A stretch of DNA of 64,000 nt from an uncultured Candidatus Saccharibacteria bacterium (GTDB lineage: Bacteria > Patescibacteriota > Doudnabacteria > UBA920), in the NCBI GenBank assembly GCA_964612745.1, contig CAZTCH010000001.1, forward strand, positions 6,074 through 70,073, given 5' to 3'. Positions 2,974 to 42,814 of this stretch are shown piece after piece. Position numbers and translations under genes: made by a program. Numbering within the stretch: the first letter of the stretch is position 1; each line of letters begins with the position of its first letter. A model generated the notes under the pieces. It was not told the DNA's origin, did no database searches, and was given only the letters and a program-made list of their open reading frames with translations.

Positions 2974-4383
2974 CTAGTTTTGAGTCTCTGGAACCGATTG
3001 GGAGATGATTTGTTTGTACGTAAAAGCGCTGGGTCTGATGGTGCGAGCTTGGTTGTTTGCGTAATCTACAGCAACAAGTCCAAACCTTGGCCAGAAACCT
3101 TTATCCCATTCGAAGTTGTCCAGAAGTGACCAGGTAAAATACCCACGGACATCTGCACCAGTTTGTAGAGCTTGTTGTACCCAAAAGATGTGGTCAGAAA
3201 TATATGCTGCTCGTAAAGTATCTTGCGCATCTGCAATCCCATTTTCTGTAATATAGATCGGTTTATTGTAACGTTGCGTTGTCTGCATGATTAGCTCGTA
3301 TATGCCATGTGGGTAGACTTCCCAGCCCATGTCGCTCTGTATTGGGGCATTAGGGTCTGGAAAGTTTCGTATCGACACACCATTTTTTCGGTTGAGTGAG
3401 ACTGCGTATTGCATTGGTCCGTAATACTGAATGCCAATAAAGTCCGAATAGTCCTTGGTTGCATCAAGAAATTTCCAATTGGCAAAACCATCAAGATACT
3501 GTTGTGCAAGAGTATTTAGTGCGGTTGCTGGTGCTGCACGTCCTAGTTGCATAGCATGCGTGCTCCCGACTTGCGCGGCTGTATTTTTAGAGTGAATAGC
3601 AGTGTAGGCTTGTTTGTGTGCTTCCATCATGCGCGCAAAGGCCTGATTACCTAAGCGGATACTGCGTTGTTCTGGTGGGATGATTCCTTGGACATATCCT
3701 CCACCAATGTGTAGTTCTGGTTCATTAAACGTCATGTAGTAGGTCACTTGCGAGCCAAATGTCTCTGCGACTTTTGTAGCAAATCGCGTAAAATCGCCCA
3801 CTGTTTTTTCGTTTGTCCATTCGCCTTGATCTGCAATCCAAGTGGGCTGAGTTCGGTGCCATAGTGTGACAAACGGTTCAATGCCCGCTGCTTTGAGTTC
3901 TGAAACAAAAGTCTGATAGTGGTTTAGTGCAGCGGTGTCAAATACTCCATCTGCAGGTTCAATCCGTGACCACTCGACTGAAAAACGATAGGCGGTTAGC
4001 CCGAGCTTTTTCATAATTGCAATGTCTTCCGGGTAACGATGTAACTGGTCCGCTGCTGTTCCAGAAATGTAGTTACTGCTTTCGCTCGCCGTTGCTGAAA
4101 ACAAGCCCCAACGGGGGGTGTTGCTAAATTTGTCCTCAGCCCCAGCAGCGAGCTGCTCAGCATGTGCTTGTTCCCACTGTGTCCAGTCATTGGAGGTGGA
4201 ACCTTCTACTTGGTGGGCAGAGGTGCTTGCTCCCCATAAAAACGAAGTGGGGAGGCGCAGATCTGTTACGGAATATGCTGGGGTCGGGATTTTCTTTCGT
4301 GTAGGGAGTGGTACAGTACAGGCGAGGATTACGAGTAGTATGATTGTGAGAGCGAAGCGGGGTATAAATGAGCGAATATGCAT
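2974..4383 (-). CDS. glycoside hydrolase family 1 beta-glucosidase, N-terminal membrane anchor/signal
   Basis: GH1 catalytic motifs TFNEP (acid/base) and ITENG (nucleophile). 469 aa. Confidence 0.85.
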   Translation of the reverse strand: MHIRSFIPRFALTIILLVILACTVPLPTRKKIPTPAYSVTDLRLPTSFLWGASTSAHQVEGSTSNDWTQWEQAHAEQLAAGAEDKFSNTPRWGLFSATASESSNYISGTAADQLHRYPEDIAIMKKLGLTAYRFSVEWSRIEPADGVFDTAALNHYQTFVSELKAAGIEPFVTLWHRTQPTWIADQGEWTNEKTVGDFTRFATKVAETFGSQVTYYMTFNEPELHIGGGYVQGIIPPEQRSIRLGNQAFARMMEAHKQAYTAIHSKNTAAQVGSTHAMQLGRAAPATALNTLAQQYLDGFANWKFLDATKDYSDFIGIQYYGPMQYAVSLNRKNGVSIRNFPDPNAPIQSDMGWEVYPHGIYELIMQTTQRYNKPIYITENGIADAQDTLRAAYISDHIFWVQQALQTGADVRGYFTWSLLDNFEWDKGFWPRFGLVAVDYANNQARTIRPSAFTYKQIISQSVPETQN

Positions 4384-15375: not shown

Positions 15376-15447
15376 GGTCCCTTAACTTAATGGTAGAGTG
15401 CTGAGCTCCACGTTCAGAGGTTGTAGGTTCGAATCCTACAGGGGCCA
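15376..15447 (+). tRNA. tRNA-Trp-like (anticodon CCA), atypical C37 and A73
   Basis: Acceptor GGTCCCT/AGGGGCC, D-stem ACTT/GAGT, anticodon stem CTGAG/TTCAG with loop CTCCACG, T-arm GTAGG-TTCGAAT-CCTAC. No encoded CCA. Confidence 0.6.
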
Positions 15448-15571
15448 TGAGTTGTAGCTCAATGGTAGAGCGCTGCTACTGAATAGGTAGGCTAAGACAC
15501 ATCAATTGAAGAAATTATGTGTATAGCGATTAAAAATCCAGAGGTTGTGGGTTCGAATCCCATCAGCTCAG
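15448..15571 (+). tRNA. interrupted tRNA-like gene (124 nt): U1-A72 acceptor, canonical D-arm and T-arm, ~50-nt insertion where the anticodon arm should be
   Basis: 5' TGAGTTG-TA-GCTC-AATGGTA-GAGC and 3' AGGTT-GTGGG-TTCGAAT-CCCAT-CAGCTCA-G pair perfectly as an acceptor stem. No 5-7-5 anticodon arm could be built, and the insert contains an ACACAT/ATGTGT hairpin. Confidence 0.4.
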
Positions 15572-15573
15572 TT

Positions 15574-15646
15574 GCTAGGGTAGCTCAACGGCAGAGCGTT
15601 CGCTTTTATAGCGGAAGGATTGCGGGTTCGAGTCCCGTCCCTAGCG
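15574..15646 (+). tRNA. tRNA with UUA anticodon (ochre-suppressor-like tRNA-Sup(TTA)), 73 nt
   Basis: Perfect 7-bp acceptor GCTAGGG/CCCTAGC, D-arm GCTC-AACGGCA-GAGC, anticodon stem TTCGC/GCGGA with loop TTTTATA (positions 34-36 = TTA), T-arm GCGGG-TTCGAGT-CCCGT, discriminator G. Confidence 0.55.
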
Positions 15647-15801
15647 TTGTCCACAGGAGGACAGATACATGTGCGGTTTGGTGCCGCTTAGTGCGCCAAA
15701 TATTTTGGATCTTAGATCCATTCCGCACTGGCGAGCTTCGTGCCCGCCAACAGAAACGAAAAACAACATGTAATGGTACATGTTGTTTTGTTTTTTCTAT
15801 T

Positions 15802-35728: not shown

Positions 35729-35771
35729 AGACAGCGTGCGTACACTTGTGTACAAACGCTGTCTTTTTTTA
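35729..35771 (+). terminator. hairpin terminator AGACAGCG...CGCTGTCT + T7 after PBP gene
   Basis: Perfect 8-bp stem and U-run. The ORF-track start (35736) of the next gene lies inside it. Confidence 0.65.
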
Positions 35772-35813
35772 TTGTGCGGTATACTTATGTATATACATTT
35801 AGAAACGTATTCC

Positions 35814-36764
35814 ATGGGAGAACGAGCACAACATTTTGAAGCTAGGAATAACACACCAGAAAGTCAGAAATCTACACGTCGAGAGTTTTTAAAACTGTCT
35901 GGCGAAGCTGCGATTGCTGGGCTTGCTGCTAAAACATTGTTTTTCGGTGGGAGTAAGGTAGAGGGCGCGGTGGCGCAAGAGAGGGGTAGGGTACGACAGC
36001 GACCAGACGAGCAAGAAACACATACTGCCCAGTCTCGTGAAATACAGCAAGGACCAGAGCGAAAATTTAGACCAGTGCATTTTCCAGCAGAAGTCCGTGG
36101 GGTGTCGAGAGAGGCAGATGGGGCACTGACTGCTGAGTTACAGACACTATTGCAGATGGAGCTCTTCCGACTACGGCGTGAGCTTAAACAAGATCTCTCA
36201 CCATGTATTCTTACTGTTGGTGAATTGGTAACGAAAGAGAGTCAGTCGCGTCTTGGTACGGGTCTGGCAAACGAAGCAGATAGGCAAATAGCGCAAGCAC
36301 CTGTCAACGTTCCTTCGCTAGGGAATGGTAGGATAGCGCAGGCGGCAGGGCAGGCTTTGGACTCGATGCTTCGTTGGGGTAGAAGAAAAGCAGAAGCTAA
36401 AACTAGAGAAAAACTTGCACCGGTAGAAGGGCGGGCCGAGTTGTCATTTACTATGCACGCAGGGACAGAAACCCAGACAGGGCGTGTTACTTTGAAGTAC
36501 GAAAAAGTAGAAGGAAAAGTGGTGCCGAAAAATATTGTTTTGGGTTCTGGTGTAGAACTTCCTGTGCACAACGCTACACAAATTTCTGGGCAAAACATAG
36601 CAGAGATGAAGTCGTTTGTTGCACACGAGCTACTAGAGGCTGCGTTTAGTGTGGCAGGACCAGATGCAGAACAGTTTCCTGTAGCAACAATGGTGCGACG
36701 ATATGTGAAAGAGGCGAGTGTAGAGACCGGCGGACAGAGTAAGACGGTACGACCGAAAAGGTAG
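35814..36764 (+). CDS. Tat-signal (twin-arginine) secreted hypothetical protein
   Basis: STRREFLKLSGEAAIAGLAA twin-arginine motif. The start at M27 of the ORF-track ORF is preferred. Confidence 0.5.
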   Translation: MGERAQHFEARNNTPESQKSTRREFLKLSGEAAIAGLAAKTLFFGGSKVEGAVAQERGRVRQRPDEQETHTAQSREIQQGPERKFRPVHFPAEVRGVSREADGALTAELQTLLQMELFRLRRELKQDLSPCILTVGELVTKESQSRLGTGLANEADRQIAQAPVNVPSLGNGRIAQAAGQALDSMLRWGRRKAEAKTREKLAPVEGRAELSFTMHAGTETQTGRVTLKYEKVEGKVVPKNIVLGSGVELPVHNATQISGQNIAEMKSFVAHELLEAAFSVAGPDAEQFPVATMVRRYVKEASVETGGQSKTVRPKR

Positions 36765-36790
36765 AAAAGTAATTAGTCACTAGTCAAGTC

Positions 36791-36830
36791 AAAAGGGTAA
36801 CCCTTGCGCTGCGCAAAGGTTACCCTTTTG
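36791..36830 (+). terminator. hairpin terminator aaaagggtaaccc-ttgcgctgcgcaa-aggttacccttttg (family shared with 5852-5893)
   Basis: 13-bp arms. Confidence 0.6.
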
Positions 36831-36874
36831 TCTGGTGCTTCTATTTTAGATTTGGAATTACGGATTATGCATTG

Positions 36875-37010
36875 CGTATTACGTATTTCAGATTTTGGAT
36901 TTCGTATTTTGAAAAGCTAACAGCTAGAAAGCTTGAAAGCTAAAAAGCTCTGTCTACTCTCTACTCTCTACTCTCTATTCTCTACCCTCTGTCCTCTCTA
37001 CCTGTGTGTG
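36875..37010. repeat. modular low-complexity intergenic repeat (AGCT-block + CTCTACTCTCTATTCTCTACCCTCT block)
   Basis: gaaaagctaacagctagaaagcttgaaagctaaaaagctc is the reverse complement of 2338-2385. ctctactctctattctctaccctct matches 2412-2440. Confidence 0.75.
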
Positions 37011-37149
37011 GATAAACCGTCTGGTCCGAAATTTGCCCCATGGTATAGTAATGGTAGGTGCGGCGACAGAGTGAGTCGTGCTGTATAACAAAACTTTTTA
37101 AACAAACAAACCAAAAAGCATACGCGTGGTTTGTTTTATTTTTTTATAT

Positions 37150-38310
37150 ATGGATCAAGACCAATTACAAACGCTGATTTCTGAGGCGGAACGGCAAGGT
37201 GGAGGCTTGGTGCTTCGCGTAGGCGAAGCACCCCAAGCAGTAGTGTTGAGTGTCGCAGCGTATTCTGAATTGCTCTCTGGGAGAACTGGGCTTGTGCCAG
37301 AGTTAGAGCCGCAAGACGGAGTAGTGACTGAATCACGGGTGACGCCTGCAAAAACTATTTTAGTAGTGGGTGGTGCGGGGTATATTGGAAGTGTACTTGT
37401 GCGAGAACTATTGGCTGCTGGGGTGCGTGTGGTTGTGTTAGACAATCTTTCTTCGGGAGCGCGTGAGCAGGTGCCTGCAGGTGTGGTGTTTATTGTGGGA
37501 GACTTTGGTGATGCGGCGCTCTTGCGAGATGTATTTGCAGAATATACAGTGAGCGCAGTGGTGCATGTTGCAAGCGTTCATGGCGATGCGGAGAATGCAG
37601 TGGTAGCTCAGGAGCTGCTGCGGAATTCTACGCAGGCACTCTACACGCTTACTACCATCATGGCTGAAAACAGTATTACAGATTTAGTTTTTACATCCGA
37701 TGCGCTTCTTACCTTGCTTGGCCAGTTACAACCGGTAGTGAGCAACACACACGCCACACTACAACCACGTACCGAGACAGCATTGCTCGCAGAGTCTGTG
37801 CTTCGCTATGCAAGTAATTTTTTAGGGTTGCGAACAGTTGTGATGCGTCTTGGTACTGTTGCAGGGGCCATGCCCGAAAGTGGTGTGTACGGAACTTTTC
37901 ACCGACATGGATTTTTAGCTCAGGTGTTGCGGGTTGCCCGCGGGGTTGGTTCGTCTGTAGTAATTCCTGGGGGTGACTGGAATACTAACGATGGTACATA
38001 TGTTCGTGACTATGTGTTTGTGGGAGATGTTGCAAAAGCTGTAGCCGCAGTGGTGCATGCGCCATTTCACGCAGGCATGCAAGTGTACGCGTTTGGGAGT
38101 GGCAAGGGAGTAAGTATTCGCGAACTTATTCAAGCGGCAGCAGAGTCGACAAGTCGAATGATTCCAATGGAACTTGGGCCACGAAATGAACAAGATGTTG
38201 AAAGGATTGTAGTGGATGCAAGCGAGTTTATGAAAACATATGAATTTGCTTGTACCCCAAAGAGTATTCACGAACTTATTGCATCTGAATGGGTCGCTCC
38301 CACGGTGTAG
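37150..38310 (+). CDS. fusion protein: Phd/YefM-like antitoxin-type N-terminal domain + GalE-like NAD(P)-binding SDR domain lacking catalytic Tyr/Lys
   Basis: N-terminus QTLISEAERQGGGLVLRVGEAPQAVVLSVAAYSELL fits the Phd/YefM fold pattern. Rossmann ILVVGGAGYIGSVLVRELLAAGVRVVVLDNLSSG is GalE-like. The expected S-x-YGxSK region reads TSDALL...QPRTETALLAE (Tyr and Lys absent). ATG at 37150 directly follows TTATAT (leaderless). Confidence 0.6.
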   Translation: MDQDQLQTLISEAERQGGGLVLRVGEAPQAVVLSVAAYSELLSGRTGLVPELEPQDGVVTESRVTPAKTILVVGGAGYIGSVLVRELLAAGVRVVVLDNLSSGAREQVPAGVVFIVGDFGDAALLRDVFAEYTVSAVVHVASVHGDAENAVVAQELLRNSTQALYTLTTIMAENSITDLVFTSDALLTLLGQLQPVVSNTHATLQPRTETALLAESVLRYASNFLGLRTVVMRLGTVAGAMPESGVYGTFHRHGFLAQVLRVARGVGSSVVIPGGDWNTNDGTYVRDYVFVGDVAKAVAAVVHAPFHAGMQVYAFGSGKGVSIRELIQAAAESTSRMIPMELGPRNEQDVERIVVDASEFMKTYEFACTPKSIHELIASEWVAPTV

Positions 38311-38361
38311 CTTTTTTCTTAGGGAATATGCTACCATGTAGGTATATTATTGATATTTTTT

Positions 38362-39081
38362 ATGCAAAAGCTTTCTGTGGTAATCCCTTCGTATAGCGAA
38401 GCGGCTCGTATTACTCCAACAATAAAAGAGACAGACGCCTTTTTGTCTGCGCAAGGATATGACTATGAAATTTTAGTCGTCATCGATGGTGCGAAAGACA
38501 ACACTGCGGCAGTGGTGACTGAACTACAAGCGTCTGTACCGAAACTTCGTGTGATTAACAACCCAGAAAATCATGGGAAAGGGTATGTCGTGCGCCAAGG
38601 GATGTTGGAAGCAACTGGCGATATCCGGTTGTTTATGGACGCGGATAACTCCACAAAGGTAGTGCATATTGCAGAGTTTTTGCCATTCTTCGAACAGGGG
38701 AGTGATATTGTTGTTGGTTCACGTCGTATTGCCGGTGCAAATATAGCAGTCCACCAAGGTTTGTTGCGAGATTTCCTCGGCGGTGTGTTTCGGTTTATTG
38801 TCCACACAATTGTGCCACTTGGGGTGACCGATTCGCAGTGTGGGTTTAAAGCGTTTACCGCTGCAGCTGCAGAAAAAGTATTTCCGAAACAAACTATTGA
38901 CCGTTGGGCATTTGACGTAGAAATTTTGGCTATTGCTCGAAAGATGAAGCTGACTATTCACGAAGCTCCAGTGGTGTGGGTCAACGACGGTGCGAGCACC
39001 GTGCGTTTCTCTGGCATGGTTCACATGCTGCTTGAAATCTTGGAAGTCCGCTGGAATTTGTGGACGGGGAAGTACAGATAG
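38362..39081 (+). CDS. family 2 glycosyltransferase (polyprenol-phosphate sugar transferase, Dpm1/GtrB-like)
   Basis: VVIPSYSEAARI, DGAKDNT and MDADNS (DxD) motifs. The ATG is 6 nt after GATATT. Confidence 0.8.
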   Translation: MQKLSVVIPSYSEAARITPTIKETDAFLSAQGYDYEILVVIDGAKDNTAAVVTELQASVPKLRVINNPENHGKGYVVRQGMLEATGDIRLFMDADNSTKVVHIAEFLPFFEQGSDIVVGSRRIAGANIAVHQGLLRDFLGGVFRFIVHTIVPLGVTDSQCGFKAFTAAAAEKVFPKQTIDRWAFDVEILAIARKMKLTIHEAPVVWVNDGASTVRFSGMVHMLLEILEVRWNLWTGKYR

Positions 39082-40849: not shown

Positions 40850-40942
40850 TATTTTTCTGCTTAACCATGGCTAATGTGGTTTCGTATGGCCTACTTTTGC
40901 CAATCTCCTTGTATACTATGTATACAGGGAGATTTTTGTTCT

Positions 40943-42814
40943 ATGAAGAAACTTATTCAAACGAAACGAGGGGTAACAGTAGTAGTGCTCGCGGTGGTGT
41001 TGTCGCTGTTTGCGCCAGCCCAGCAGATTTCGGCACAGGCATTTGACCCGAGCTTTGACCCCAATACGCTTATTGCAGACAGTGTGTTTTCTGACACCGA
41101 GACATTTGGTGGGGCAGCAGGTGTCCAGAAATTTTTAGAGAGTAAAAATAGTGTGTTGGCGAATACATCGCCTGAGTTTTTGGTAAAACTAAAAGAGCCA
41201 CAATCAGTTACCGTGAAAAGCGGACTGAACGATCCACAGCCAAGTTTGCCGCGTTTGCGTTCTGCGGCAGAACTTATTTGGGACGCTGCCAAACAAAGTG
41301 GAATTAACCCACAAGTGCTTTTGGTAACATTGCAAAAAGAGCAAGGGTTAATTACTGCAAGGCAAAATGATCCACCAGAGAGATTGCAACGCGCCTTAGA
41401 TTTTTCTATGGGATTTGGGTGTCCTGATTCCACGGGGTGTGGGCCACTTTTCTCAGGTTTTTATTTCCAGTTGTTTGGTAATTTTGATGCAGCCAATAAC
41501 CGCTACTTAGGTGCAGCACGCAGCCTTATGGCGTGGTTCAACGTGCCAGAAGGACGTGGGCCGAACATAAATGGCAAGACTACTCGCGTGGGTGAAGTCA
41601 TAGAGCTACAAAATACACTTGGTGGTTTTGATGGCGTCATGGAGCGGCAAACAGTGATGTTGCAAAATCGAGCAACAGCAGCGTTGTATCGGTATACGCC
41701 CCATGTGTTTAACGGTAACTATAATTTCCAAAAATATTTTACGTCTTGGTTTAAGTACCCAAACGGGACGCTTATGAAGCTGTCTGGGGACTCAACCACG
41801 TATATTATCCAGAATGGTAGCAGGCTGACATTACCTTCGTTTGTGGCAGCTGCTCGGGGCCTAGACTTAAACAAAGTAATTACCGTGTCTCCGACAGAGG
41901 TGGCGAGTTATCCATTAAGCGGGTTGCTCGGTCCAGCTGATAACACGGTGGTTATAGTGCCAGGGTCAAACCAAAAGTTTGTGTTTTTGGATAACGTGAA
42001 ACGACCAGCATCTGACTTTGTTATTACCCAGCGGAAATTAAACCCTGCTGCAGCGCTGGTTATGACACCAGCAGACGATGCGTTGTTTACCGCAGGTCCT
42101 ATGCTCACGCCAACCGACGGTACGGTGGTACGTGGCAGCACAAAACCGGAAGTGTATCTAGTCGCCGCTGGCAAGCTCCAGCTGTATAGCGCGTTCACGT
42201 TTGCACAATATGGCGTTGCAAAACAAGTATCCCTTGTGCCAGATGCAGAACTAGAGTTGTACCCAAAAAATGGATTTGTTCCACCGAAAGATGGAACAAT
42301 ATTTAAAGCAGCCAATAGCCAAGCTGTATACGAAATGTTCCAAGGGTCAAAACATCCGTTTACAGCAGCCGTGTTCAAGAACAGGGGTGTGACGCCGAAG
42401 GGTGTAGCAGTACTGTCTGCTGATGAAGTTGCAAGTTTCCCGACTGATGGTTTTGCGAGACCAAAAGATAAGACATTCTTTACTATTGCGGGGAGCGCGC
42501 AGTTGTACTATTACCGTGAAGGGGCAAAGCGAACTATTTCCGCATTTGTCGCAAAGCAGCAAAAAATTACATCTGACTATACCTTTAGCGCGGATGAAGC
42601 AAACACATGGTCCGACGGCACACCTGTCCCTCCTCGAAACAATACTATTGTGAAAGGTGACGGGGATGCTACCGTGTACATTGTGTTAACAGGGCAGCTC
42701 CGCCCACTGACCTATCCTGCTTACCAAGCACGAAAAATTACTCCGAAGAAGATTTCGGTACTGCCACAAGCAGAGGTGGATGCATATGCGAAAGGCGACG
42801 TAGTTAGTAAGTAG
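40943..42814 (+). CDS. secreted hypothetical protein with six-plus ~55-aa repeats homologous to the S8 peptidase C-terminus
   Basis: Signal peptide after MKKLIQTKRG, with SD GGGAGA 10 nt upstream. The repeated motif pattern is (P)DGT.V...(T)..VY.V..G.(K)..(I/L).. Confidence 0.6.
   Translation: MKKLIQTKRGVTVVVLAVVLSLFAPAQQISAQAFDPSFDPNTLIADSVFSDTETFGGAAGVQKFLESKNSVLANTSPEFLVKLKEPQSVTVKSGLNDPQPSLPRLRSAAELIWDAAKQSGINPQVLLVTLQKEQGLITARQNDPPERLQRALDFSMGFGCPDSTGCGPLFSGFYFQLFGNFDAANNRYLGAARSLMAWFNVPEGRGPNINGKTTRVGEVIELQNTLGGFDGVMERQTVMLQNRATAALYRYTPHVFNGNYNFQKYFTSWFKYPNGTLMKLSGDSTTYIIQNGSRLTLPSFVAAARGLDLNKVITVSPTEVASYPLSGLLGPADNTVVIVPGSNQKFVFLDNVKRPASDFVITQRKLNPAAALVMTPADDALFTAGPMLTPTDGTVVRGSTKPEVYLVAAGKLQLYSAFTFAQYGVAKQVSLVPDAELELYPKNGFVPPKDGTIFKAANSQAVYEMFQGSKHPFTAAVFKNRGVTPKGVAVLSADEVASFPTDGFARPKDKTFFTIAGSAQLYYYREGAKRTISAFVAKQQKITSDYTFSADEANTWSDGTPVPPRNNTIVKGDGDATVYIVLTGQLRPLTYPAYQARKITPKKISVLPQAEVDAYAKGDVVSK

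Follow-up and report, generated by a model that had tools for sequence, protein, structure and literature searches.

Uridine diphosphate (UDP)-glucose 4-epimerase (GalE; TIGR01179; e.g., 1UDC and 2C20) is a short-chain dehydrogenase/reductase (SDR) in which substitution of S124, Y149 or K153 cuts activity by orders of magnitude. Several Rossmann proteins, including NmrA, HSCARG/NMRAL1, and Rex, are sensors that keep their dinucleotide-binding motifs without the catalytic Tyr and Lys. NmrA-type proteins act by protein-protein contact, and Rex is an NADH-sensing repressor with an N-terminal nucleic-acid-binding winged helix that contains conserved basic residues. The chloroplast proteins CSP41a/b are stem-loop-binding, epimerase-like SDRs, which also lack the catalytic residues. 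The gene described here lies within a 64,000-nucleotide (nt) stretch, hereafter the window, of contig CAZTCH010000001.1 (assembly GCA_964612745.1) from an uncultured Patescibacteria (candidate phyla radiation, CPR) bacterium. It encodes a truncated module resembling the Phd/YefM antitoxins, joined through a linker to a catalytically degenerate, GalE-like extended SDR. What is new is an unreported domain on a member of the GalE family, together with a pseudoenzyme subclade, and not a new kind of system.

According to sequence and structure comparisons, the protein has three parts: (i) an N-terminal module homologous to the core of Phd/YefM antitoxins; (ii) a flexible, variable linker; and (iii) a complete GalE-like body. 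The linker has a predicted local distance difference test (pLDDT) score below 50 at residues 44-63 of the AlphaFold model and differs in length and sequence among homologs. The open reading frame (ORF) listing contains a single frame, 37126..38310 (+), and the ATG at 37150 is taken as the start, as full-length homologs open with MDxxxL or MExExL; the product therefore has 386 residues, in agreement with the original prediction. Read-through into the in-frame glycosyltransferase family 2 (GT2) gene downstream was rejected, given the TAG stop (38308-38310), a second in-frame TAG (38320-38322), and frames that differ in other loci. A frameshift artifact joining two genes is excluded, since the same uninterrupted architecture recurs in about 20 proteins from a full-length search, in about 10 more full-length proteins among 50%-identity representatives, and in 11 related loci. 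The fusion is thus conserved in related genomes, as had been proposed for checking.

The C-terminal part had been described as a full-length GalE-like Rossmann protein, and this is well supported. Residues ~68-386 match the Pfam Epimerase family (3e-29), the best solved relative is Bacillus anthracis GalE (2c20, 5.5e-41), and Foldseek comparison of the AlphaFold model (pLDDT 82) with crystal structures of GalE gives template modeling (TM) scores of 0.81-0.87 (E ~1e-28), showing the two-domain extended-SDR fold. For the NmrA-like SDR family (PF05368), the match is confined to residues 67-133 (29.4 bits), far weaker than the full-length Epimerase match that covers them, and is a generic Rossmann signal. 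With E. coli GalE (sequence identical to 1udc_A) as the numbering ruler, the protein keeps the motifs GGAGYIGS (GxxGxxG), VLDNL, and GDFGD (GDxxD), along with the equivalents of G7/G10/G13, D31, N32, D58, R231, Y233, and D295. In contrast to GalE, the catalytic residues S124/Y149/K153 align with D184/R207/A211. The replacement of the GalE segment SPYGKSK by QPRTETA thus falls at exactly the position originally predicted, and the loss extends to S124; no alternative YxxxK was found around the active-site region. Several residues that contact nicotinamide adenine dinucleotide (NAD) or UDP are replaced as well (YFN177-179 to LGT, N199 to G, R292 to N), and the TIGR01179 score of 181.4 bits lies below the curated equivalog cut-off (262.3 bits, whole-protein score). 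The window protein also differs from GalE in its extra N-terminal domain, which was seen in no free-standing GalE. A second GalE was sought in the 64-kb window, and none was found.

Together with P0002-P0006, the window protein forms a dead-site clade of six sequences (51-57% identity to the window protein), in which S124 is replaced by Asp and K153 by Ala, Leu or Val, and N179, N199, and R292 are also lost; Y149 has become Arg in the window genome. Another member of this clade, P0004, scores 193.9 bits against TIGR01179. A larger set of proteins carries the same N-terminal module with S/T124, Y149, K153, N179, R231, R292, and D295 all intact, and its members score as GalE by the NCBI model: P0007 358, P0014 347, P0013 375, P0018 349, P0020 376, and P0129 391 bits. 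The two groups share a gene order: Lgt, a 250-residue protein, a PDZ protein, and a sortase, then the fused gene, GT2 (239 residues), an S8 peptidase, a ~620-residue protein, SLT, and a flippase. This order is seen in the window and in dead-site loci L003, L005, L006, and L007, as well as in intact-site loci L001, L002, L004, L008, L009, L010, and L132, and the dead-site and intact-site fused genes are positional orthologs. Because the orthologs with intact sites pass the GalE cut-off, the module evolved on an apparently working enzyme, and the fusion predates the loss of catalysis. The fusion defines a GalE subfamily of the Patescibacteria in which most members retain all catalytic residues. 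The named fused members are from "Candidatus Doudnabacteria" and "Patescibacteria group" bacteria, and their source annotation, where they are named at all, is UDP-glucose 4-epimerase. No literature on a GalE-Phd/YefM fusion or on Doudnabacteria epimerases was found; neither the annotations nor the literature gave a description of this domain combination, which the original prediction had likewise not recognized as described.

Independent losses are also seen in other lineages of the family. P0133 has Tyr149 replaced by Ala and Lys153 by Ser; P0134 has Thr at the third Gly of GxxGxxG and lacks D31/N32, with the catalytic Tyr and Lys kept; P0123 and P0127 carry R231V; and P0137 has a deletion at residues 179-180. 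Such repeated decay of the enzyme part, with the module kept, suggests a second, non-catalytic function in this family.

Selection on the fused gene was estimated as the ratio of nonsynonymous to synonymous substitution rates (dN/dS, Nei-Gojobori) among P0002-P0005, as comparisons with the window are saturated at synonymous sites. The ratio is 0.07-0.16 for the whole fused gene, 0.065-0.157 for the GalE-like part, and 0.02 or less for the N-terminal module (98-100% amino-acid identity at dS 0.44-1.0); it is 0.015-0.025 for the neighboring GT2, and P0007/P0010, a pair with intact sites, gives 0.051. Purifying selection is thus keeping the dead enzyme in place, and the module is the most constrained part of the fused protein. 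One could instead regard the gene as a decaying relic without function, since the active site has degenerated, with different residues in different clade members, and the GalE part evolves several-fold faster than the adjoining GT2. We consider this scarcely credible: the five clade genes read as DNA (the window and P0002-P0005) are intact ORFs, P0006 is a full-length product of 398 residues, the module has stayed nearly identical in P0002-P0005 while synonymous sites became half-saturated, and the ratio of fused-gene dN to GT2 dN (~3.5) is about the same in the intact-site pair P0007/P0010. As the active-site residues have been lost while the gene remains under purifying selection, the window protein is best described, from its sequence, as a pseudoenzyme variant within the fused GalE subfamily.

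A pseudoenzyme assignment has to be weighed against the possibility that the protein is still an enzyme, using non-canonical residues (e.g., D184 or R207) or catalyzing a different, non-redox reaction on nucleotide sugars. The protein still has the Rossmann motifs and the R231/Y233/D295 equivalents, the GalE-like part is under purifying selection, and five of the six clade members retain the Tyr149 equivalent. On the other hand, the clade has lost Ser124, Lys153, Asn179, Asn199, and Arg292 as a set, five of its six members have deletions around the 82-84 loop, the model of the window protein is poor over the 188-201 loop, and the score of this protein falls below the GalE cut-off. In GalE itself, substitutions in the catalytic triad are enough to cost orders of magnitude in activity. 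Continued catalysis is therefore given little probability.

The original prediction had also assigned a Phd/YefM pattern to the N-terminus, which holds at the level of the family and not for the window sequence on its own. Scanned alone, the window's N-terminus has no Pfam or NCBIfam match, and no match to PF02604 at E<=1. Scanned singly, 22 of 24 orthologous N-termini match PF02604 (best E 7e-6), all under the gathering score (29.8 bits), and no other family recurs among them; even P0124, which scores highest among the members scanned as whole proteins, reaches only 26.9 bits. The alignments shown individually cover profile positions ~13-60 of 74. In an exhaustive hidden Markov model (HMM) search, a profile built from 13 orthologous N-termini was compared with 1.84 billion representatives and found 23 proteins, nearly all of them N-termini of GalE fusions of 350-405 residues or fragments cut by contig ends. 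The only credible non-fusion matches, P0142 and P0143, are both Phd/YefM proteins (P0143 matches PF02604 at 6e-13). When the N-termini were compared as a profile with a Phd/YefM alignment by hhalign, the probability was 97% (E 8e-11, 42 columns); this alignment was seeded from P0143, so that the Pfam result is an independent line. Against the single sequence of E. coli YefM, hhalign gave a weak match (24%, 15 columns) in the same register, in which module residue n corresponds to YefM residue n+7. A word-indexed database search with an N-terminal profile returned two contig-end fragments only, and a search against PDB sequences gave only spurious low-complexity matches and no Phd/YefM protein.

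Structure prediction agrees with this assignment. An AlphaFold2 model of the module alone (pLDDT 82) has a helix at residues 3-15, strands at 19-24 and 27-33, and a helix at 35-43, which is the alpha2-beta2-beta3-alpha3 topology of the Phd/YefM antitoxins (PF02604; YefM 2A6Q/6L8E, Phd 3K33, 2ODK). In a Foldseek search of the PDB with this model no match was significant (best E 0.94), and every superposition at or below 3.0 Å root-mean-square deviation (2.5-3.0 Å) was with an antitoxin of this type (2odk, 3g5o, 6l8e, and 3k33). These comparisons indicate that the module is a core derived from Phd/YefM.

The resemblance is to only part of the antitoxin fold. In the n+7 register the module begins at the equivalent of YefM residue 8, and strand beta1 and the first part of alpha1 are therefore absent. 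In the crystal structure of the S. aureus YoeB-YefM-DNA complex, DNA is read by N5, Y6, S7, R10, Q11, and K14 together with T32, and mutation of these residues abolishes binding (PMC7544224). The module has nothing equivalent to YefM residues 5-7, and at the position of Arg10 the family has Q/E/N/S/T/P/I and never a basic residue. Only hydrophobic residues and Gly occupy the invariant positions, none of the basic residues is conserved, the net charge of all 24 N-termini is -4 to 0 (22 are negative), and the whole-protein isoelectric point (pI) is 4.8-5.1 in the window's clade. Bulk charge gives no hint of nucleic-acid binding either, as the dead clade is no more basic than its active relatives or free GalEs. 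Unlike the antitoxins, the fused protein has no C-terminal toxin-binding segment, the linker and GalE body standing in its place, and no toxin gene of the YoeB, Doc, RelE or ParE type lies next to it; the neighbors are a 342-residue ORF without a family match and the GT2 gene, and related loci are alike.

The leader of the gene nevertheless contains an inverted repeat, and this bears on whether the protein might be a transcription factor. In the window the repeat is AAACAAACCA-N13-TGGTTTGTTT; comparison of upstream regions gives a core of AAACAAACC-N(10-15)-GGTTTGTTT. It lies between a promoter-like block and the ATG. The leaders are otherwise unalignable, and conservation is confined to three blocks: CATG(G/C)TATA(G/T)T, the pair of arms, and a T-rich tail. 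Ten further loci (L001-L008, L010, and L132) have the core arms in conserved sequence, and two more have variants; in L132 the stem is longer by five pairs and the loop is 13 nt, L009 carries a symmetric A-to-C/T-to-G change, and L011 has a different hairpin at this position. A scan of the window and L001-L007 found the repeat once in the window (0 expected in shuffles) and once in each of the seven loci, always just upstream of the ortholog. A genome-wide exact scan gave at least 120 matches in unrelated bacteria, with the fused protein encoded at none among the matches listed, which shows that the motif alone is not diagnostic for the fused gene. The leader repeat is evidence of gene-specific regulation, and it alone sustains an autoregulatory reading.

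If the protein were a transcription factor, as the original prediction of a DNA-binding, sugar-nucleotide-sensing regulator had it, the module would dimerize and bind the leader repeat, and the dead SDR would sense UDP-sugar or NAD(H); the gene would be autoregulated, and the downstream glycan genes perhaps controlled. On this model, relatives with intact sites would be "trigger enzymes", combining catalysis with regulation. Antitoxins of the Phd/YefM type autorepress through palindromes (PMC7544224), the module is homologous to their DNA-binding domain, the repeat was found nowhere else in the window or L001-L007, and selection has kept the pseudoenzyme. The similar logic of NmrA, HSCARG, and Rex, in which Rossmann motifs outlast catalysis, offers a possible analogy. 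However, beta1 and the Arg10/Gln11/Tyr6/Ser7 reading head are missing from the module, which, unlike Rex, also has no conserved basic residues. The half-site is invariant across lineages, yet the module that would read it is acidic, and the whole protein has a pI of ~5. Across loci, the arms start 19 to 32 nt apart, a variation that changes their rotational phasing, and it was an enzyme, not a sensor, that acquired the module. While a DNA-binding regulator is thus possible, and the conserved repeat within the 37020-37150 region gives it some footing, this model is considered unlikely.

Spacing this variable is easier to reconcile with an RNA hairpin than with a rigid dimer operator. The repeat could act in the transcript as an attenuator, stability element or translational operator, bound by the GalE-like body or by another factor, and here enzymes that bind their own mRNA and the CSP41a/b proteins provide analogies: like the latter, the window protein has an epimerase fold that has lost its chemistry, and its gene carries a conserved stem-loop in its own leader, though CSP41 has no Phd/YefM-like module and its organisms and sequence lineages are unrelated. 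The repeat would be in the transcribed leader, downstream of the promoter-like blocks; an invariant stem closing loops of 10-23 nt is in keeping with a hairpin; the L009 change is symmetric and the L132 stem is five pairs longer; and a T-rich tail follows in most lineages. Conversely, predicted folding is weak, at -9 to -10 kcal/mol with z-scores of -1.4 to -3.1, the loops are larger than the 3-8 nt of an intrinsic terminator, whose stem would be G+C-rich, only 3 of 9-10 stem pairs are G-C, a terminator consensus scan did not call the repeat, L132 has no T-tract, Rfam matched no family in the leader, and nothing ties the protein, which is acidic, to RNA. Autoregulation through RNA therefore seems improbable. 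A broader version would treat the fused GalEs as trigger enzymes and the window's clade as their purely regulatory end-state: occupancy by UDP-hexose and/or NAD(H) would be reported by binding of the AAACAAACC/GGTTTGTTT element, as DNA or RNA hairpin, and would set expression of the envelope-glycan module, with the module giving the dimer geometry. This is quite unlikely; if true, it would represent an undescribed class of sugar-nucleotide-responsive regulator in Patescibacteria.

The reading favored here, with a probability of roughly 0.45, is a non-catalytic role at the level of the protein, as a ligand-binding scaffold or modulator in which the module is a self-association or docking element. 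The subfamily would be specific to the Patescibacteria. In the ancestral protein and in most present members, the body is probably a working GalE, which would supply UDP-hexose to the adjacent GT2 as part of an envelope module conserved across loci. The window's clade, which retains the Rossmann ADP-binding motifs and some of the UDP pocket, would have given up the redox chemistry. The dead protein could then serve as a dinucleotide- or UDP-sugar-binding scaffold, or as a modulator of the adjacent glycan pathway, with the N-terminal module mediating self-association or docking instead of reading DNA. Several points weigh against this. The conserved leader repeat is unaccounted for and could be the protein's own target, and the Tyr149 equivalent in five of six clade members means that residual or altered chemistry is possible there. 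The window's own N-terminus has no PF02604 match, the Foldseek superpositions of the module fall short of significance, and in the full-length model the module has a pLDDT of 49-69, which makes its placement relative to the body tentative. Finally, we infer, and do not observe, ligand retention, the oligomerization role of the module, and the partnership with GT2.

The fused gene sits beside a cluster of GT2, S8 peptidase, and further glycosyltransferase genes, as originally noted, and adjoining glycosyltransferases are a feature shared with GalE. Fused GalE, GT2, S8 peptidase, and the ~620-residue protein form a conserved four-gene module (Table 1). Wherever a locus reaches far enough, GT2 follows the fused gene either directly or with two genes in between; its similarity to polyprenyl-phosphate hexosyltransferases is weak and sub-threshold. 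The GT2 ORF is listed from a TTG at 38350, and homologs begin MQKLSVVIP or MPKLSVVIP, so that the ATG at 38362 is its likely start. In L009 (the P0018 locus) two small ORFs of 74 and 90 residues without a Pfam match lie between the fused gene and GT2 (3296-3845); in the other loci the two genes are adjacent. The protein that follows the S8 peptidase, in every locus extending far enough, has no Pfam or NCBIfam match.

Upstream, an AT-rich gap of ~385 nt separates the fused gene from the 342-residue ORF (35736-36764; no Pfam or NCBIfam match), whose slot is variable in related loci and holds proteins of 283-332 residues without a Pfam match, or a penicillin-binding protein (PBP) directly. The hairpin that directly follows this ORF is likely its terminator, marking the fused gene as a separate transcription unit, and analogous GC-rich hairpins lie upstream in related loci. 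The extended -10-like block TGGTATAGT is a putative promoter on the basis of its conservation; a promoter consensus scan did not call it, as it has no -35. Short tandem repeats also lie in the gap (AAAGCT(A/T)GAAAGC-type 8-nt units at 36913-36948 and CT-rich (CTCTACT)n at 36950-37000) and are not conserved in the aligned related leaders. Elsewhere, the window contains a tandem tRNA trio at 15376-15647. The first is tRNA-Trp(CCA) (15376-15447); the second (15448-15571; Rfam tRNA 49 bits, missed by ARAGORN) has a 63-nt insertion in the anticodon arm; and the third (15574-15646; Rfam 58.9 bits) carries UUUUAUA as its anticodon loop, giving the anticodon UUA, which would read the stop codon UAA. 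The ORFs of the window look normal under the standard code.

Table 1. Positions of the fused gene, its parts, and nearby features (window coordinates unless a locus is given; aa, amino acids; CDS, coding sequence).
Feature	Position	Strand	Remarks
Hairpin with 23-nt arms	36787..36833	+	Directly after the upstream ORF
TGGTATAGT, extended -10-like block	37041..37049	+	Conserved upstream of orthologs; candidate promoter
Inverted repeat AAACAAACCA-N13-TGGTTTGTTT	37104..37136	+	5' leader; ends 13 nt ahead of the ATG, with a T-rich tract behind it
Fused CDS	37150..38310	+	386 aa + TAG; truncated Phd/YefM-like module, linker, and catalytically degenerate GalE-like extended SDR
N-terminal module	37150..37281	+	Residues 1-44; homolog of the alpha2-beta2-beta3-alpha3 core of Phd/YefM antitoxins
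Variable linker	37282..37350	+	Residues ~45-67; predicted disordered
GalE-like domain	37351..38307	+	Residues 68-386; from Pfam, NCBIfam, PDB relatives, residue table, and Foldseek
D184	37699..37701	+	At the catalytic Ser/Thr124 position of GalE
R207...A211	37768..37782	+	At the catalytic YxxxK (Y149, K153) positions
Downstream GT2	38362..39081	+	239 aa (MQKLSVVIP...); polyprenyl-phosphate hexosyltransferase-like; synteny
~615-646-aa protein	40874-42814		L001 12005-13867; L004 11953-13815; L005 11987-13849; L132 8662-10509

The Patescibacteria have tiny genomes, and their cell envelopes are largely uncharacterized. In this lineage a conserved envelope module opens with a GalE that carries an antitoxin-derived domain, and several lineages have shed catalytic, cofactor or substrate residues from it while it stayed under selection, which points to a non-enzymatic role tied to the synthesis of envelope glycans. 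The fusion is a clear example of the reuse of a toxin-antitoxin domain outside a toxin-antitoxin system, and it shows pseudoenzyme evolution caught beside positional orthologs that are predicted to be still active. For the window's clade, the name UDP-glucose 4-epimerase is probably wrong.

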